This document shows, in pieces, positions 57,954 to 62,965 of a DNA stretch of 64,000 nucleotides. This stretch comes from Escherichia phage vB_EcoM_LNA2. A program made the translations under genes and the position numbers. The notes under the pieces were generated by a model. That model saw only the letters and a list, made by a program, of their open reading frames with translations. It searched no databases and was not told the DNA's origin. Location: sequence record MZ311865.1. One strand, 5' to 3'. Position 1 is the stretch's first letter, and the number at the start of each line of letters is the position of its first letter.

Positions 57954-58133
57954 TTAACCCTTCTTAAGTAAGTCGTAAAAACCACCGTTCACATGTTTAG
58001 GAGCAGAAACCCGACGAGTAGACAGACGATGACATTCAGGGCAAACATCGTTTTCTCGTTCAGAAATCCTTTTAATTTTTTCATATTCATGACCACAATC
58101 TTCAGATTGACATTTATAGTCGTATAACGGCAT
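57954..58133 (-). CDS. small zinc-ribbon protein (FmdB-like CxxC...CxxC), 59 aa (missed by ORF track)
   Basis: Hand translation: [59 protein letters not shown]; two CxxC pairs; TAATG overlap with the upstream ORF. Confidence 0.55.
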   Translation of the reverse strand: MPLYDYKCQSEDCGHEYEKIKRISERENDVCPECHRLSTRRVSAPKHVNGGFYDLLKKG

Positions 58134-58564
58134 TATTGTTCCTTAAAGTGAGCTTTCAACATTTGATACAAAGACCATGCCTGGTCGTTATTTTCGATAG
58201 TAATCGTCATCACCGGAAATTCAGACAATTCATCAAGTTCACCAGAATCTTGCTCTTCAGACTCTTGATACGGATTTCCAACTTCGTCAAAGAACTCTGC
58301 TTCATTCGTGGAGAGCCAGATAAAGTTTTCATCAAGGATGTCACCGCCTGTTGCGTATCCAACCATGCCAGTAGATGTCACAATTTTAGTAGGACGACCA
58401 AGATGGTCAACATCTAATATTTTAAATGGTTCCATGCCAAGACGTCGTGCGTAAATCCCATTATCAGTGTGGTCTTTAATAAACTCTTCTTGGGCACGTT
58501 TATCTTTAAATTGGTACCATGAGTTAACGCGGAATTTATTAGCCATTAGTAAGTTTCCTTCCAA
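58133..58564 (-). CDS. hypothetical acidic protein
   Basis: 143-aa ORF. Confidence 0.45.
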
Positions 58565-58773
58565 TAAGTTGTACCATTTTCAGTGATTTCACGGAAGATA
58601 CCATAGATAGGCATTTCGTCACCGAGTTTTTCGTAAACGTAAACCACTTCAGTGTAGCATAAAAATTCAGTCCAGTTTTTCTGTACAACAACTAAATCAG
58701 GATTAAACAGAACATCTTCAAACTCATCGATGTTTGAATCAGTAGTTACGTTTTTAATGATTTGACGTTTCAT
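58546..58773 (-). CDS. hypothetical protein
   Basis: Track ORF 58546..58818 trimmed to internal ATG at 58771-58773 preceded by GAGGAG (75 aa). Confidence 0.4.
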
Positions 58774-58801
58774 AATATTCTCCTCTTGTTTTGATAGGTC
58801 T

Positions 58802-58830
58802 ATAGTATCATAGACCATAGTTGTTGTACA
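58802..58830 (-). promoter_or_regulatory. early-type promoter cassette with hairpin around -10
   Basis: Minus-strand TGTACA-17nt-TACTAT; palindrome GGTCTAT..ATAGACC around the -10. Confidence 0.45.
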
Positions 58831-59355
58831 TCATTTTAGCAAAATAAAATCAACTTGTTCTGCCAATGAACGTCTGAACATTAATTGACAACTTCCGAGG
58901 ATGAAATCAGGTGCTTCATAGACCGCGATGTAGTATCCTTTAGCTTTCAAGAGTTCAACATCCACCTGGTCATCAAACCATGCATAAACCGCGTCAACAC
59001 TTTCAAATCCAAAATAGAACTCTTGAGCCCAATCTTCGCTCAATTCAAATGTGTGCTCAATTCTATAGTATCTTAAGATATTTTGTTCAAGGAGTTTGTC
59101 TTCATTTACTGTAGGACGATTAGGGACATTATAGTTGTCGCCATGATGGTAGAAGTTACCTGAGAGTATTCCATGCTTATCAAGGAACTCCCATGTTTCT
59201 TCAGAGTTGTCGGTGCCCGACCAACCGTATGGCGAACGAGGTTCTTTATTCCAAGAGGTTTCCCAAATTCTGACGGCTTTACCGTCTTCAATAGCAATTC
59301 CTGGTAATGATTCACGTTGAGTACAAAAACTACGTTCTACGCGGTAAACTAACAT
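58831..59355 (-). CDS. hypothetical protein
   Basis: 174-aa ORF; RBS GAGGAGAA. Confidence 0.45.
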   Translation of the reverse strand: MLVYRVERSFCTQRESLPGIAIEDGKAVRIWETSWNKEPRSPYGWSGTDNSEETWEFLDKHGILSGNFYHHGDNYNVPNRPTVNEDKLLEQNILRYYRIEHTFELSEDWAQEFYFGFESVDAVYAWFDDQVDVELLKAKGYYIAVYEAPDFILGSCQLMFRRSLAEQVDFILLK

Positions 59356-59381
59356 ATTATTCTCCTCTGGTTGATATGGTT

Positions 59382-59410
59382 ATAATATCAAAACCAGAGG
59401 AGAAGTAAAC
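59382..59410 (-). promoter_or_regulatory. early-type promoter cassette with 13-bp hairpin enclosing -10 and pairing with the downstream RBS
   Basis: Minus-strand GTTTAC-17nt-TATTAT; inverted repeat TTCTCCTCTGGTT (59360-59372) / AACCAGAGGAGAA (59391-59403). Confidence 0.5.
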
Positions 59411-59414
59411 AACT

Positions 59415-59834
59415 TTATGCAAAAGATGCTGGACAATATTTTTTGATTTGGAACTCAGGAACTACCATGAACTGTCCAGCAAAAACAATGTTATAAAGCT
59501 TGACTCCATCTTCAACCCATTGGTCACTGATGAACCCAGCGACTTGATTCGTTGTCCACGGTGTTCCATCTGTCGCAGAGGCAATGGTGAACTTGTGGTC
59601 TTTTACAACTAAAACCGATCTGCACAGTTTCCATTTGAACGCTTTTTCTTCCGGTTCAATGAATTGGCTTTTAACGTAACCAATGTTACCATCGGCGTCA
59701 CGAACTTTAACTTCGTTACGTCCAAAAACAGGATCACTCACATAAAGAACTTCAACCAACTTCCCGGCAACTTTAGAGCGAGAAGCATCCGATACGTGTA
59801 CATAATCACCAATAGAGAGATTTGCAATATTCAT
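59415..59834 (-). CDS. hypothetical protein, paralog family member 1
   Basis: 139 aa; C-terminal GFISDQWVEDGVKLYNIVFAGQF block shared with the two upstream ORFs. Confidence 0.5.
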   Translation of the reverse strand: MNIANLSIGDYVHVSDASRSKVAGKLVEVLYVSDPVFGRNEVKVRDADGNIGYVKSQFIEPEEKAFKWKLCRSVLVVKDHKFTIASATDGTPWTTNQVAGFISDQWVEDGVKLYNIVFAGQFMVVPEFQIKKYCPASFA

Positions 59835-59843
59835 AATAATTCC

Positions 59844-60341
59844 TTAAGCTTTACGAGGAGACACATAGCGAGTGATTTCAGATTCTTCAACAACTCGGAA
59901 GTCACCTAAGAATACAATATTGTATAGCTTTTTACCATCTTCAACCCATTGGTCGCTGATGAAGCCGCACATAGTATCAGTTTTGCTTGGATAACCGTAT
60001 TCGTCGATGTAATCAAATTCTTTATCGGTTATAAATTCAACGCCTTTGCAAAGGGCCCATTTGAACTGTGTAGTAGGCTCAACGATATCGCTTGAAGCAA
60101 AGTGTGCAGGTGCAACTTCTTCGCTTGAAGCAAATTGGACTCGTATATGTTTTTCCAGGAATTTAGGACTTACGTAAGCATACTGGGCATCTTGTCCGCC
60201 AAAACTGGGGATGATTCGAACTTTAACTTCTTTAACACGTCCCATGCCGTTAGTACGAAGCCCTGCTACTTCAACCAGACGACCTGCAGCTTTAGAACGA
60301 GAAGCAGGAGATACACGAAGGATTTCACCAATAGTAATCAT
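59844..60341 (-). CDS. hypothetical protein, paralog family member 2
   Basis: Track ORF 59844..60404 trimmed to internal ATG at 60339-60341 (MITIGEILRV..., 165 aa); C-terminal GFISDQWVEDGKKLYNIVFLGDF. Confidence 0.5.
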   Translation of the reverse strand: MITIGEILRVSPASRSKAAGRLVEVAGLRTNGMGRVKEVKVRIIPSFGGQDAQYAYVSPKFLEKHIRVQFASSEEVAPAHFASSDIVEPTTQFKWALCKGVEFITDKEFDYIDEYGYPSKTDTMCGFISDQWVEDGKKLYNIVFLGDFRVVEESEITRYVSPRKA

Positions 60342-60371
60342 ATTTTTTCTCTCTTTGTTTAAGTTGAATTC

Positions 60372-60402
60372 ATTATACTCCATCCATCCTTGGATGTAAA
60401 AC
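60372..60402 (-). promoter_or_regulatory. early-type promoter cassette
   Basis: Minus-strand GTTTTAC-18nt-TATAAT with CATCC..GGATG stem in the spacer. Confidence 0.45.
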
Positions 60403-60403
60403 A

Positions 60404-60898
60404 TTAATTAAGAATATTAACTACTGCACTACGTGGAACAACACTAAAATCACCAGCATGAACAACGTTAATAAGTTCAACACCATCTTCAATCCACTGG
60501 TCAGTTACCCATCCACTCACTGGACCTGCGAACGGACGTCGAATTGAAACGGCTTTACACAACAAATCAGTAGGCTCAATAGGCTTAATCAGAGTACCGT
60601 ACATACAAGCGATGTCCATATCAAAGTGGAGACCATCTTTAACAGGTGCTTCTTCAATCAAGAGTTCAAAGTCGGTGCTCGGAAGGGCAGTAGTAGAAAT
60701 TGTACCGTATGAATTTTTAATTTCTAAGAATAACCAAGGGCCTTCAACTTGTTTGATGAAGTTAACAATAGTGAAACTATTACCTTGAGTGGCACCTAAA
60801 ATTTCACAAAACTTTTCATAAGCTCGCACTGAAGCACCGTACCAATTGATTTGTTTTTCGTCTTTCAGGATGTAAGTAGCCGTAGTATTGATATTCAT
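60404..60898 (-). CDS. hypothetical protein, paralog family member 3
   Basis: 164 aa; C-terminal GWVTDQWIEDGVELINVVHAGDF, divergent copy of the same domain. Confidence 0.5.
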   Translation of the reverse strand: MNINTTATYILKDEKQINWYGASVRAYEKFCEILGATQGNSFTIVNFIKQVEGPWLFLEIKNSYGTISTTALPSTDFELLIEEAPVKDGLHFDMDIACMYGTLIKPIEPTDLLCKAVSIRRPFAGPVSGWVTDQWIEDGVELINVVHAGDFSVVPRSAVVNILN

Positions 60899-60929: not shown

Positions 60930-60959
60930 ATTATACTCCAACCATCCTTGGTTGTAAAC
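60930..60959 (-). promoter_or_regulatory. early-type promoter cassette
   Basis: Minus-strand GTTTAC-18nt-TATAAT with CCAAGG-centred stem in the spacer. Confidence 0.5.
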
Positions 60960-60964
60960 TGCTT

Positions 60965-61642
60965 TTATCGCTGTTTTACACTTAACGGGTCAGGATTCTC
61001 AGGGACATCTTCAAGGCCAAGCGCATAACGCTGAGCATATTTTAACATCAAAATATCTTTAGCACAATCATGAATACTATCATGGGCAACGAATCCTTTT
61101 AGCGTACCCATCGGTAATGGACACATACTTAATCCTCGTGTCAACGAGTAAGCTTCGATTGCTGTACGAATATCACGTTGAGCCCAGAATTTAACCGGTT
61201 CTAATTTATCAGTATCAATATCTGGTTCAAGAACACCTTCATCACGATAGAGGTCACGAATCAAATCGACCAAGATTGGGAAGTCAAAGCTCATACCACG
61301 GCACCACATCTGTGATTTCCATTGGTCAACTTTATTAGCTCGACAATAATCTAAAAAGATTTTAATGCCTTCAAGCGTAGTGACATCGTCTTCAGACGGA
61401 GCCAAGTTTTTACGCGCTTCAGCAGATTGTTCTTTCCACCATTTCATAGTGGATTTAGCGAAAACTCGCTTCCCTTTCTGAGAAGCTAAATTAAATTTAA
61501 TTCGCTTACCTCGTTGAACAAGGTCTTCAAATGATTCAACAACTTCTGGGTCGGAATTATATGCAATAACCGCAAGGTCAATAACAGCCGCTTTTGATGT
61601 ATTGCCGAATGTTTCAAAATCTATAATAACATCAGTGCTCAT
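60965..61642 (-). CDS. dexA: exonuclease A (DEDD/DnaQ-like 3'-5' exonuclease)
   Basis: 225 aa (T4 DexA 227 aa); N-terminal IIDFETFG Exo I motif; adjacent to dda. Confidence 0.8.
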   Translation of the reverse strand: MSTDVIIDFETFGNTSKAAVIDLAVIAYNSDPEVVESFEDLVQRGKRIKFNLASQKGKRVFAKSTMKWWKEQSAEARKNLAPSEDDVTTLEGIKIFLDYCRANKVDQWKSQMWCRGMSFDFPILVDLIRDLYRDEGVLEPDIDTDKLEPVKFWAQRDIRTAIEAYSLTRGLSMCPLPMGTLKGFVAHDSIHDCAKDILMLKYAQRYALGLEDVPENPDPLSVKQR

Positions 61643-61651
61643 AATTTTCTC

Positions 61652-62965
61652 TCAAATAAAATGGACGTCAAACCGGCCACGAGTTGTGCCGACATACAAT
61701 AACTGTTTAGCTAATTCTGAATCGGCATAATGGATACACGGTGTATAAACAAAGGCCGTGTCAACAGACATACCCTGAGCCTTATGGAAGGTTGATACTG
61801 GTAGTGCCTTCACCTTAGTGAACATACGTTTAGCATCCCAGAATTCGCTCCATGGAGCTTTACCACCTTTATTCCAGAATTTGTATGTTTCTGCTGTCTT
61901 AGCCAAAAACAAATTGAATTTATAAAGCTCTTCTTCAGAAGAAATAACCTTTATATCTTCACGGATGTATTCTTCATCATCCCCATATGTTTCTACTGTA
62001 AGATTCCAGTATCGTATCATATATTCGCCTGAAACACCACGTGCTTTAACGAATGTAGACGTTTCTACAGCATCTCGAATACGAACGAATTGCCCATTAT
62101 TGAAAAGCATTTCGGTCATATTTTTACCGTCTAGCTTATATGTCTTAGTAAATGGCTCTTGTAGAACAATGACTTCGTCTTTAATAAATGGTTTTTCTGT
62201 TTCAAGAAGTTTTCGGCGAATAATTGAATTTAACTTGTCCACCGACTTATTTGTGAATGCCATCATTCGATTTTCGAAAAGGTCTTCAGGAGTTTTAACG
62301 ACGTTAAAATAGTTCATCATATACGATTTAAGGTCTGTATATCCATGAACACCGTGTCCATCAACTACTTTATCGTAAATCCATTTGCCATTACGAATAT
62401 CAGTCGCAACATCAATAATTGGTGCATTACTACGTTTAACTTCTGTAAGGTTGCATTGCACGAAGTCTTTGTGAGTGAAGAAAGGACTTAGATACGCAGT
62501 TGATTCGCCTGGGTCTACCGGTCGAATTTGACATCGGTCGCCGATTCCAATTACTGTGCACCATTTAGGGATACTAGCTAACATTATTTTAAACAGAGAA
62601 CGGTCGCACATTGACGCTTCATCAAATAACAGTACACGACACAAGGCTAAGTCGGGAACCTTTTTCTGTTCAAACAATACGTTTTCTTCGTATGTAGTTG
62701 GGTTGATTTTAAGAATGCTATGAATAGTCGATGCTTCTTGACCTGCAAGTTTGCTTAGAACCTTTTTAGCAGCATGTGTAGGGGCTGCTAAAATAATACC
62801 TGATTCTCCAGAAGAAATAAGGGCTTCAACGATGAATCTAGTAAGGGTTGTTTTACCTGTACCAGCAGGTCCATTAATAGTTACATGATGTTTCTTTTCT
62901 TTAATAGCTTCCATAACAACGTTGAAGGCGTTTTTCTGGCCTTCAGTCAAATCATCAAATGTCAT
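61652..62965 (-). CDS. dda: Dda DNA helicase (SF1B)
   Basis: 437 aa (T4 Dda 439 aa); Walker A GPAGTGKT, Walker B LLFDEASM, C-terminal VGTTRGR. Confidence 0.9.
   Translation of the reverse strand: MTFDDLTEGQKNAFNVVMEAIKEKKHHVTINGPAGTGKTTLTRFIVEALISSGESGIILAAPTHAAKKVLSKLAGQEASTIHSILKINPTTYEENVLFEQKKVPDLALCRVLLFDEASMCDRSLFKIMLASIPKWCTVIGIGDRCQIRPVDPGESTAYLSPFFTHKDFVQCNLTEVKRSNAPIIDVATDIRNGKWIYDKVVDGHGVHGYTDLKSYMMNYFNVVKTPEDLFENRMMAFTNKSVDKLNSIIRRKLLETEKPFIKDEVIVLQEPFTKTYKLDGKNMTEMLFNNGQFVRIRDAVETSTFVKARGVSGEYMIRYWNLTVETYGDDEEYIREDIKVISSEEELYKFNLFLAKTAETYKFWNKGGKAPWSEFWDAKRMFTKVKALPVSTFHKAQGMSVDTAFVYTPCIHYADSELAKQLLYVGTTRGRFDVHFI

Follow-up and report, generated by a model that had tools for sequence, protein, structure and literature searches.

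A probable motB.1, motB and second motB gene set with a common C-terminal domain in a Mosigvirus phage

Three adjacent minus-strand genes in a 64,000-nucleotide stretch of Escherichia phage vB_EcoM_LNA2 (sequence record MZ311865.1; the whole stretch is called the window here) very probably, at roughly 0.88, represent motB.1, motB and a second motB copy from the early-gene cluster of Mosigvirus. The DNA of the window is 95–99% identical to that of the Mosigvirus phages UGJNEcP1, G53, HX01, NBG1 and mar005P1 and is collinear with RB69, and its source is a Mosigvirus, an RB69/HX01-like T-even phage. On the minus strand the genes run in the order dda (61652–62965), dexA (60965–61642), ORF3 (MotB.1 homologue, 164 amino acids, 60404..60898), ORF2 (MotB orthologue, 165 amino acids, 59844..60341), ORF1 (second MotB copy with a short linker, 139 amino acids, 59415..59834), a MotB.2 homologue (174 amino acids, 58831..59355) and cef (58546–58818). 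All three members of the trio were found on this strand at the coordinates first predicted for them, including the ORF2 start at 60341.

The synteny that begins with dda and dexA and ends with cef is common to the window, T4, RB69, HX01 and mar007P3, and the annotations agree. The order of the intervening genes is dexA, motB.2, motB.1, motB, cef in T4, whereas in both RB69 and the window it is dexA, motB.1, motB, motB', motB.2, cef. The trio thus lies in the early region between dexA and cef of a T-even genome, downstream of predicted consensus early promoters, and the two-domain architecture of MotB (a KOW-like N-terminal domain plus a conserved C-terminal domain, or CTD) is present. Both the family and this arrangement are already known. 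The paralogy, the domain sharing and the RB69-like copy number are all in print, and our finding is a rediscovery. The MotB.2 homologue, which is context outside the trio, has 33% identity to T4 MotB.2, belongs to phrog_1106 and is annotated motB.2 in RB69. It has no Pfam match, and despite its name its sequence is unrelated to MotB.

The start of the middle gene needed to be assigned with some care. A mechanically called ORF for this gene reaches an ATG at 60404, which would give a 186-amino-acid protein whose coding region overlaps the ORF3 stop codon. This longer form was rejected, and the start was placed at 60341, on three grounds: the extra stretch consists of promoter sequence; neither its length nor its frame is conserved in relatives; and the start of T4 MotB is at the corresponding MI(I/T)NIGE.

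A domain common to all three ORFs, and an N-terminal block common to ORF1 and ORF2, had been proposed, and both are borne out by independent comparisons. With E values computed at a nominal database size of 1e8 residues, BLASTP aligns ORF1 and ORF2 over their whole length (E = 2.6e-25, 41.5% identity over 159 columns), ORF1 and ORF3 over 29 amino acids (E = 1e-5, 62% identity), and ORF2 and ORF3 with E = 2.5e-4. The similarity of ORF3 to the other two proteins is confined to its final 30–55 residues. Pfam family PF17613 (motB) matches ORF1, ORF2 and ORF3 with 82.2, 127.3 and 36.8 bits, all above the curated gathering score of 25 bits, and ORF3 is covered by the C-terminal half of the model only (amino acids 88–159). 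An HMM of the CTD, run against all six translated frames of the 64-kb window, matches these three ORFs and no others (E = 1e-28 to 1e-34; the next best match is at about 1), and an N-terminal HMM matches ORF1 and ORF2 alone. The significance of the BLASTP, Pfam and HMM matches also establishes that the similarity is not a product of low complexity.

The shared CTD comprises 55–75 residues, is all-beta, corresponds to the C-terminal half of PF17613 and ends all three proteins. Its near-invariant core is G-[FWY]-[IV]-[ST]-D-Q-W-[VI]-E-D-G-x-x-L-x-N-[IV]-V. The GFISDQWVEDG-type motif by which the trio was originally recognized is exact in ORF1 and ORF2, and ORF3 carries the variant GWVTDQWIEDGVELINVVHAGDFSVV. 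In ORF2 and ORF1 the CTD follows a KOW/SH3-like N-terminal barrel and a flexible linker, whereas its N-terminal neighbour in ORF3 is an alpha/beta domain of another kind, which for T4 MotB.1 has been published as ‘LSm-like’. The description of the trio as three paralogues is therefore correct in that all three carry a homologous domain, but ORF3 is not a plain duplicate. Its N-terminal domain is unrelated to those of the other two, which makes it a domain-swap relative.

ORF2 matches T4 MotB over its full length with 45% identity and matches phrog_1671 with E = 7.5e-63. Its basic, KOW/SH3-like N-terminal domain (amino acids 1–64, 60150–60341, pI 10.4) is followed by a disordered and variable linker (amino acids 65–91) and by the C-terminal barrel (amino acids 92–165, 59847–60068), all on the minus strand. 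The two proteins are alike in this two-domain layout, with a KOW-like N-terminal domain bearing the SRSKAAG-LVEV block, a linker and the CTD core DQWVEDGVKLYN, and their genes are alike in genomic neighbourhood and in having an early promoter. They differ in other respects. The whole-protein pI is near neutral for ORF2 (6.2) but basic for T4 MotB (9.2), so the strength of DNA binding by ORF2 may differ from that of its T4 counterpart. The ORF2 linker is unlike the T4 MotB linker, and its length varies among close relatives; the MotB protein of the window has 165 amino acids compared with 151 in RB69, with 87% identity across aligned residues. No tandem DNA repeat was detected in the ORF2 linker by TRF at a score of 30, although the encoded peptide reads FASSEEVAPAH/FASSDIVEPTT. 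In addition, a RegB GGAG site is present in the T4 motB mRNA leader but not in the leader that ORF2 would receive from its own promoter.

ORF1 encodes a further MotB, one that belongs to a separate lineage. It is 39% identical to T4 MotB and matches phrog_1671 with E = 5e-52. Orthologues with at least 80% identity occur in 207 of 778 phage records, and none falls between 60% and 80%. This lineage, about 40% identical to MotB, is missing from T4 but is carried by RB69 (where the counterpart is RB69p010), RB68, PP01 and ime09. The layout of ORF1 resembles that of T4 MotB, with a KOW-like N-terminal domain (amino acids 1–62, 59649–59834, minus strand) and a C-terminal barrel (amino acids 66–139, 59418–59639, minus strand). 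However, its linker is much shorter, and the net positive charge of the N-terminal domain is gone, the value for ORF1 being −2.

ORF3 matches phrog_2333 over amino acids 1–164 with E = 5.3e-81 and T4 MotB.1 by BLASTP with E = 6e-23 (38% identity over amino acids 3–136). It consists of an alpha/beta N-terminal domain (amino acids 1–85, 60644–60898), a disordered linker (amino acids 86–105) and a MotB-type C-terminal barrel (amino acids 108–164, 60407–60577), again on the minus strand. The match between ORF3 and T4 MotB.1 runs through the N-terminal domain into the beginning of the CTD, and both genes are located immediately upstream of motB. ORF3 thus combines N-terminal homology to T4 MotB.1 with a MotB-type CTD, the combination that defines the MotB.1 family, and its counterpart in mar007P3 is annotated ‘MotB.1 conserved hypothetical protein’. 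The CTD of ORF3 is 75–86% identical to those of many MotB.1-type proteins. Unlike T4 MotB.1, ORF3 has an additional segment of about 20 residues, HFDMDIACMYGTLIKP, preceding the CTD. The N-terminal domain of MotB.1 has been predicted to be LSm-like, with a bent beta-sheet of five strands (Kim et al. 2025, PMC12152347).

The motB.1 of the T4 reference sequence (119 amino acids) carries a 1-nucleotide frameshift that removes the last 28 residues, whereas the intact T4 protein (P0110) has 143 amino acids with a complete CTD, and ORF3 aligns with it end to end. This frameshift is missing from every resequenced T4 and is therefore a reference error or a clone mutation. The published MotB.1 size of 13.8 kDa is that of the truncated form (PMC12152347). 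In the RB69 reference, two single-base insertions split motB.1 into pieces of 132 and 29 amino acids, whereas six other close relatives, like the window, have the gene as one intact 164-amino-acid ORF. In other respects RB69p010–p013 present the same genes, order, 9-nucleotide ORF2–ORF1 junction and promoter upstream of motB.1 as the window. The existence of a 143-amino-acid T4 MotB.1 with a full CTD bears on experiments built from the reference annotation, and this point goes beyond the literature cited here.

The original prediction also assigned each of the three genes its own promoter cassette. This holds for ORF3 and ORF2, each of which is preceded on the minus strand by a strong predicted early promoter (TTTACA-17 nt-TATAAT, matching 11 of 12 consensus positions): a T4-type (sigma-70) early promoter at 60930..60958 for ORF3 and another T4-type early promoter at 60372..60400 for ORF2. 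There are three perfect matches to TTTACA-N17-TATAAT in the 64-kb window, two of which are these, and when one mismatch is allowed there are eight matches compared with 1.6 expected. The spacers of the two promoters are near-identical (CCAAGGATGG[A/T]TGGAG). The ORF3 promoter is kept in all seven ORF3-bearing Mosigvirus loci, and the annotation of NBG1 also marks it as a promoter. The ORF2 promoter, which has an equivalent at T4 motB, is kept in position among relatives, but its hexamers vary (TGTACA, TATAGT, TATAAA) and are weaker in several of them, and the strength of this promoter is uncertain for this reason.

The same claim fails for ORF1. Searches upstream of this gene for early promoters, middle promoters with a MotA box and TATAAATA late promoters returned no match, and the gene begins only 9 nucleotides after the ORF2 stop. 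This junction (59835..59843, minus strand, TAAGGAATTATTATG) includes the Shine-Dalgarno sequence AAGGA and is identical in G53, NBG1, NHEP11 and RB69, the relatives in which the ORF1 start was located. The short gap and the lack of a promoter match suggest that ORF1 is probably co-transcribed with ORF2.

AlphaFold2 predictions made with family alignments depict ORF2 and ORF3 each as two domains, all-beta or mostly beta, with a disordered linker between them. The ORF2 model has a mean pLDDT of 77.8, with residues 66–90 below 50, and the ORF3 model has a mean of 80.5, with residues 86–105 below 50 and CTD blocks at about 89–95. Fold searches with the whole-protein models returned SH3-like, KOW and Tudor matches, including the PHF19 Tudor domain, BAH, PWWP, chromo, PsaE and NusG. 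For example, Foldseek aligned ORF3 with the 120-residue tandem Tudor of 53BP1 over 119–160 columns (probability 1.0, E = 2e-3), which suggests that both halves of the modelled ORF3 may be SH3-like small barrels. EF-P and eIF5A, on which the published HHpred call of a cold-shock-type OB fold for the MotB CTD is based (eIF5A domain 2 being an example of this fold), rank lower in these lists, in which the models were searched uncropped. The predicted models thus lean toward an SH3/Tudor-like rather than an OB fold for the shared CTD, a tentative reading that goes beyond the cited literature. The likeness to SH3-like small barrels (KOW of NusG/Spt5, Tudor, chromo, PWWP) and to eIF5A/EF-P (KOW plus OB) is at the level of fold only and concerns predicted models; these proteins have no detected sequence relationship to MotB-type proteins, and shared function is not implied. 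Sequence searches of the PDB with ORF2 and with a 14-sequence CTD profile gave no match, even at E = 10.

The CTD family is small. When the CTD profile was compared with 1.84 billion representative sequences, only 37 clusters matched at E ≤ 1e-3, and the 23 matches at E ≤ 1e-10 were short proteins of 100–250 amino acids that include MotB and MotB.1 of Tevenvirinae. Proteins of 500–900 amino acids with GYATEQWV(x)K(x)YLT repeats, which align over only 15–25 profile positions, were set aside as a short-motif likeness judged to be non-homologous. Three distant members (P0238, P0245 and P0248) have a KOW-like N-terminal domain plus the CTD, suggesting that this is the ancestral architecture. The MotB.1-type CTD (75–86% identical to that of ORF3) sits on at least four N-terminal architectures, one of which is KOW-like, in proteins of 143–145, 164–169, 177–183 and 244–252 amino acids. 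Natural chimeras also occur: P0036 joins an ORF2-type N-terminal domain to an ORF1-type CTD, and P0098 joins the N-terminal domain of T4 MotB to an ORF1-type CTD.

Although the genes were first described as being of unknown function, the MotB family has been characterized in the literature. In E. coli, T4 MotB has been found to be toxic; it is recovered together with H-NS and StpA on purification, doubles burst size and binds DNA, whether modified or not, with no sequence specificity (PMC6070864), and its overexpression raises the expression of H-NS-repressed genes (PMC7827196). The protein has been described as a KOW-like N-terminal domain plus a CTD, with MotB.1 having the CTD and a different N-terminus, and a duplication was suggested (PMC7827196). 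DNA binding, toxicity and co-purification with H-NS and StpA are known for T4 MotB only (PMC6070864, PMC7827196). The proposal that these are host-interaction genes gains support from this homologue, a toxic early DNA-binding protein that associates with H-NS during purification and is thus a takeover protein.

By homology to T4 MotB, ORF2 is likely to be an early protein of high abundance that binds DNA non-specifically and remodels both the nucleoid and the binding of H-NS. Judging from this homology, it would be synthesized abundantly during the opening minutes of infection, would bind host and phage DNA non-specifically, probably via its basic N-terminal barrel, and would alter the seating of H-NS and StpA on DNA. 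Genes silenced by H-NS would then be derepressed, and burst size would increase modestly. More tentatively, ORF1 might be translated from the ORF2 transcript, and ORF1 and ORF3 might reach the same partner as MotB via the shared CTD, each bringing a different N-terminal activity. Candidates for this partner are the nucleoprotein complex, MotB itself or a host protein.

The distribution of charge is relevant to these proposals. The KOW-like N-terminal domain has a charge of +6 in ORF2 and +5 in T4 MotB, whereas that of ORF1 is acidic, and the CTDs of the trio carry net charges of −4, −2 and +2 (neutral to acidic). Because the positive charge resides in the KOW-like domain, the CTD more probably serves in partner binding or assembly than in electrostatic contact with DNA. 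Overall, ORF1 is neutral and has an acidic N-terminal domain, and ORF3 is acidic (pI 4.65), and these computed values make it unlikely that either protein acts as a simple electrostatic or redundant DNA coater.

One speculative idea, which we regard as unlikely, is that the CTD, taken as SH3/Tudor-like rather than OB, serves as a common ‘address’ module that delivers varied N-terminal domains to a single target in host or phage nucleoprotein, such that the trio would form a combinatorial set. If the CTD is a targeting module, then negative results obtained with MotB.1 may reflect the use of a truncated protein that lacks its targeting domain. The N-terminal domains present on this candidate module are KOW-like in both MotB copies, LSm-like in MotB.1, and of at least two other kinds elsewhere.

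An equally doubtful alternative is that the CTD mediates homo- or hetero-oligomerization to form mixed complexes, with DNA binding residing wholly in the KOW-like N-terminal domain. This reading is consistent with a CTD that is neutral to acidic yet is the most conserved part of the proteins (dN/dS 0.05–0.14), with the joining of one CTD to many different N-terminal domains, with the strongly basic N-terminal domains of ORF2 and T4 MotB, and with the report that T4 MotB.1 runs partly as a dimer (PMC12152347). However, the published AlphaFold3 models of homomultimers are of low confidence (PMC12152347), and SH3/Tudor/KOW-like barrels can also bind nucleic acids directly.

A further alternative, the one first advanced for this locus, is that the genes arose by recent duplication in place and function in anti-defence or host range while under diversifying selection. 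We consider this quite improbable, although several observations are in keeping with it. The trio is housed in a dispensable, hyperplastic early region, its copy number varies between phages (JK45 lacks motB.1), and among close relatives it is several-fold more divergent than the flanking dda and dexA, as seen in the amino-acid identity of ORF1 (83–96%) compared with that of dda (at least 99%). Moreover, the countering of H-NS, a xenogeneic silencer, can count as anti-defence (PMC7827196).

Selection was evaluated by pairwise Nei-Gojobori estimates of dN/dS against nine related phages, per gene and per domain. Values were 0.08–0.11 for ORF1 (dS 0.39–0.85), 0.06–0.32 for ORF2 and 0.09–0.26 for ORF3, compared with 0.00–0.08 for dda and dexA in Mosigvirus relatives (dS 0.03–0.16). 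Among the domains, constraint is strongest in the CTDs, and the N-terminal domains range from 0.05 to 0.26. A single ORF2 pair, involving the closest relative, gave 0.87, a value with very few substitutions behind it, and the disordered linker of ORF2 alone is near neutral (0.9–1.3, from few sites). In this pairwise comparison with nine relatives, no dN/dS above 1 was observed either gene-wide or in a folded domain. These values, at 0.05–0.26 well below 1 in every folded domain, speak against the claim of diversifying selection.

The excess divergence of the trio is instead mainly synonymous, which points to exchanged old alleles rather than to fast adaptation. The dS values of the trio are 0.4–1.2. 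They are 3–8 times those of dda and dexA, and within a single gene the N-terminal domain and the CTD can be up to 8-fold apart in dS (0.13 and 1.09 for ORF1 compared with RB69). Divergence that is mostly synonymous and that changes at domain borders suggests recombinational module exchange. Thus, the modules derive from an old duplication or domain shuffle, are under purifying selection and are exchanged between phages by recombination, as N-terminal domains, as CTDs or as entire genes. By these gene-wide and domain-wide measures, it is this exchange under purifying selection, not positive selection, that explains the divergence of the cluster, a conclusion that goes beyond the cited literature.

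Nor was the duplication recent. ORF1 and ORF2 are about 41% identical in local alignment (50% globally), and third-codon positions within the motif shared by the paralogues are only 42–50% identical, indicating that silent sites are saturated. Gene conversion was considered as a cause of the identical motif in ORF1 and ORF2 and was rejected, since third-codon positions there are only 42% identical. Furthermore, RB68, a Tequatrovirus, carries this trio in an unchanged order, with an ORF1 that is 90% identical even though dexA and cef are only 69% identical. The trio is either older than the split between Mosigvirus and Tequatrovirus or has moved between them as a block.

The view that ORF1 and/or ORF3 are decaying duplicates without function is hardly credible: it can draw on the lack of a phenotype upon deletion of T4 motB.1 (PMC12152347), on phages such as JK45 that lack this gene and on its frameshifts in the T4 and RB69 reference genomes, but it is largely refuted by purifying selection on both genes (dN/dS about 0.1), and it is further opposed by the finding that both are intact in the window as well as in its examined close relatives (except for the RB69 reference motB.1), by intact ORF1-type genes in 207 phage records, and by the failure of the T4 frameshift to appear in any resequenced T4.

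Just downstream of ORF1, and outside the trio, is a conserved hairpin (59360..59404, minus strand) with a predicted RNA folding energy of −24 kcal/mol (z = −6.4). [quoted passage not shown] T4 and RB68 form the same structure from different sequence.

The motB.1 gene of the T4 reference genome (NC_000866, 2143-2651, minus strand) has a product of 119 amino acids whose C-terminal end is ...DQWIGRWR*. This gene was compared with positions 60407-60500 of the window, which lie in the MotB.1 homologue ORF3. Sequence comparison identifies one surplus G in the T4 reference (GGATTGGAAGATGG versus GGATTGAAGATGG), and in its +1 frame the conserved end EDGVELLNVVHAGEYSVVPRSAVVAILN is present and intact. 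The surplus base is absent from all 13 other listed records that carry T4's motB.1 allele (11 resequenced T4/T4T genomes, RB55 and RB59), in which the allele is 508 nucleotides long compared with 509 in the T4 reference. A MotB.1 protein of 143 amino acids is annotated in MT984581, and the intact MotB.1 protein P0110 occurs with identical sequence on 256 contigs. The computed mass is 16.18 kDa for the intact form and 13.80 kDa for the truncated form, the latter being the MotB.1 size given in PMC12152347.

The RB69 reference (NC_004928, 3377-3873, minus strand) carries two single-base insertions in motB.1, CGTTTCG and GGTTGTTG, located ~50 nucleotides apart, and in the middle frame FAGPVSGWVTDQWIEDG reads through intact. 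The RB69 'motB.1' (132 amino acids) and the '29 aa peptide' described in PMC7827196 are a single gene broken by both insertions. In contrast, motB.1 in the window and in six close relatives is one unbroken open reading frame of 164 amino acids. The RB69 insertions represent either sequencing error or clone-selected mutation in a toxic gene.

The early promoters upstream of ORF3 (60930-60958) and of the MotB orthologue ORF2 (60372-60400) have almost identical 17-nucleotide spacers (CCAAGGATGG[A/T]TGGAG), which are lacking from the remaining early-promoter matches within the window. Because this near-identical spacer is peculiar to the ORF2 and ORF3 promoters, the promoter cassette itself appears to have been duplicated, or to have moved jointly with the genes. 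JK45 has no motB.1 gene, and its motB lies immediately downstream of an ORF3-type promoter.

A strong hairpin (59360-59404, minus strand; -24 kcal/mol, z -6.4 by RNA folding) resides between ORF1, the second MotB copy, and the 174-amino-acid MotB.2 homologue. Its loop contains the -10 element of a weak predicted promoter (TTTACT-16-TATTAT), and its 3' arm is predicted to pair with the Shine-Dalgarno sequence GAGGAG of the 174-amino-acid gene. A hairpin built on this design also occurs upstream of motB.2 in T4 and RB68, with a stem sequence that differs from that of the window; the GAGGAU paired in these hairpins is a published RegB site. The T4 device blocks translation on read-through transcripts and permits it on transcripts that start within the hairpin. 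The predicted hairpin in the window resembles this device.

The disordered linker of ORF2 (60069-60149, amino acids 65-91) contains an imperfect 11-amino-acid duplication in its peptide (FASSEEVAPAH-FASSDIVEPTT), and TRF called no DNA repeat in this linker. ORF2 orthologues vary by indels here: the annotated proteins are 151, 154 or 165 amino acids long and database relatives 158 amino acids. Linker dN/dS is near 1.

GoF and the MotB.1 N-terminal domain have been reported to have an LSm-like fold in common (PMC12152347). If this is true, the goF homologue (58133-58546) and the ORF3 N-terminal domain (60644-60898) place two LSm-like family members ~2 kb apart in the window.

Outside the window, P0239, P0242 and similar database proteins of 500-900 amino acids contain the unit GYATEQWV(x)K(x)YLT(x)HQSL in 4-7 copies, which look like fibre-type repeats. 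These repeats match the core motif (GYITDQWVEDGVKLYN) of the MotB-type C-terminal domain with E values of 1e-4 to 1e-9, reflecting either convergence on a beta-hairpin motif or a distant relationship.
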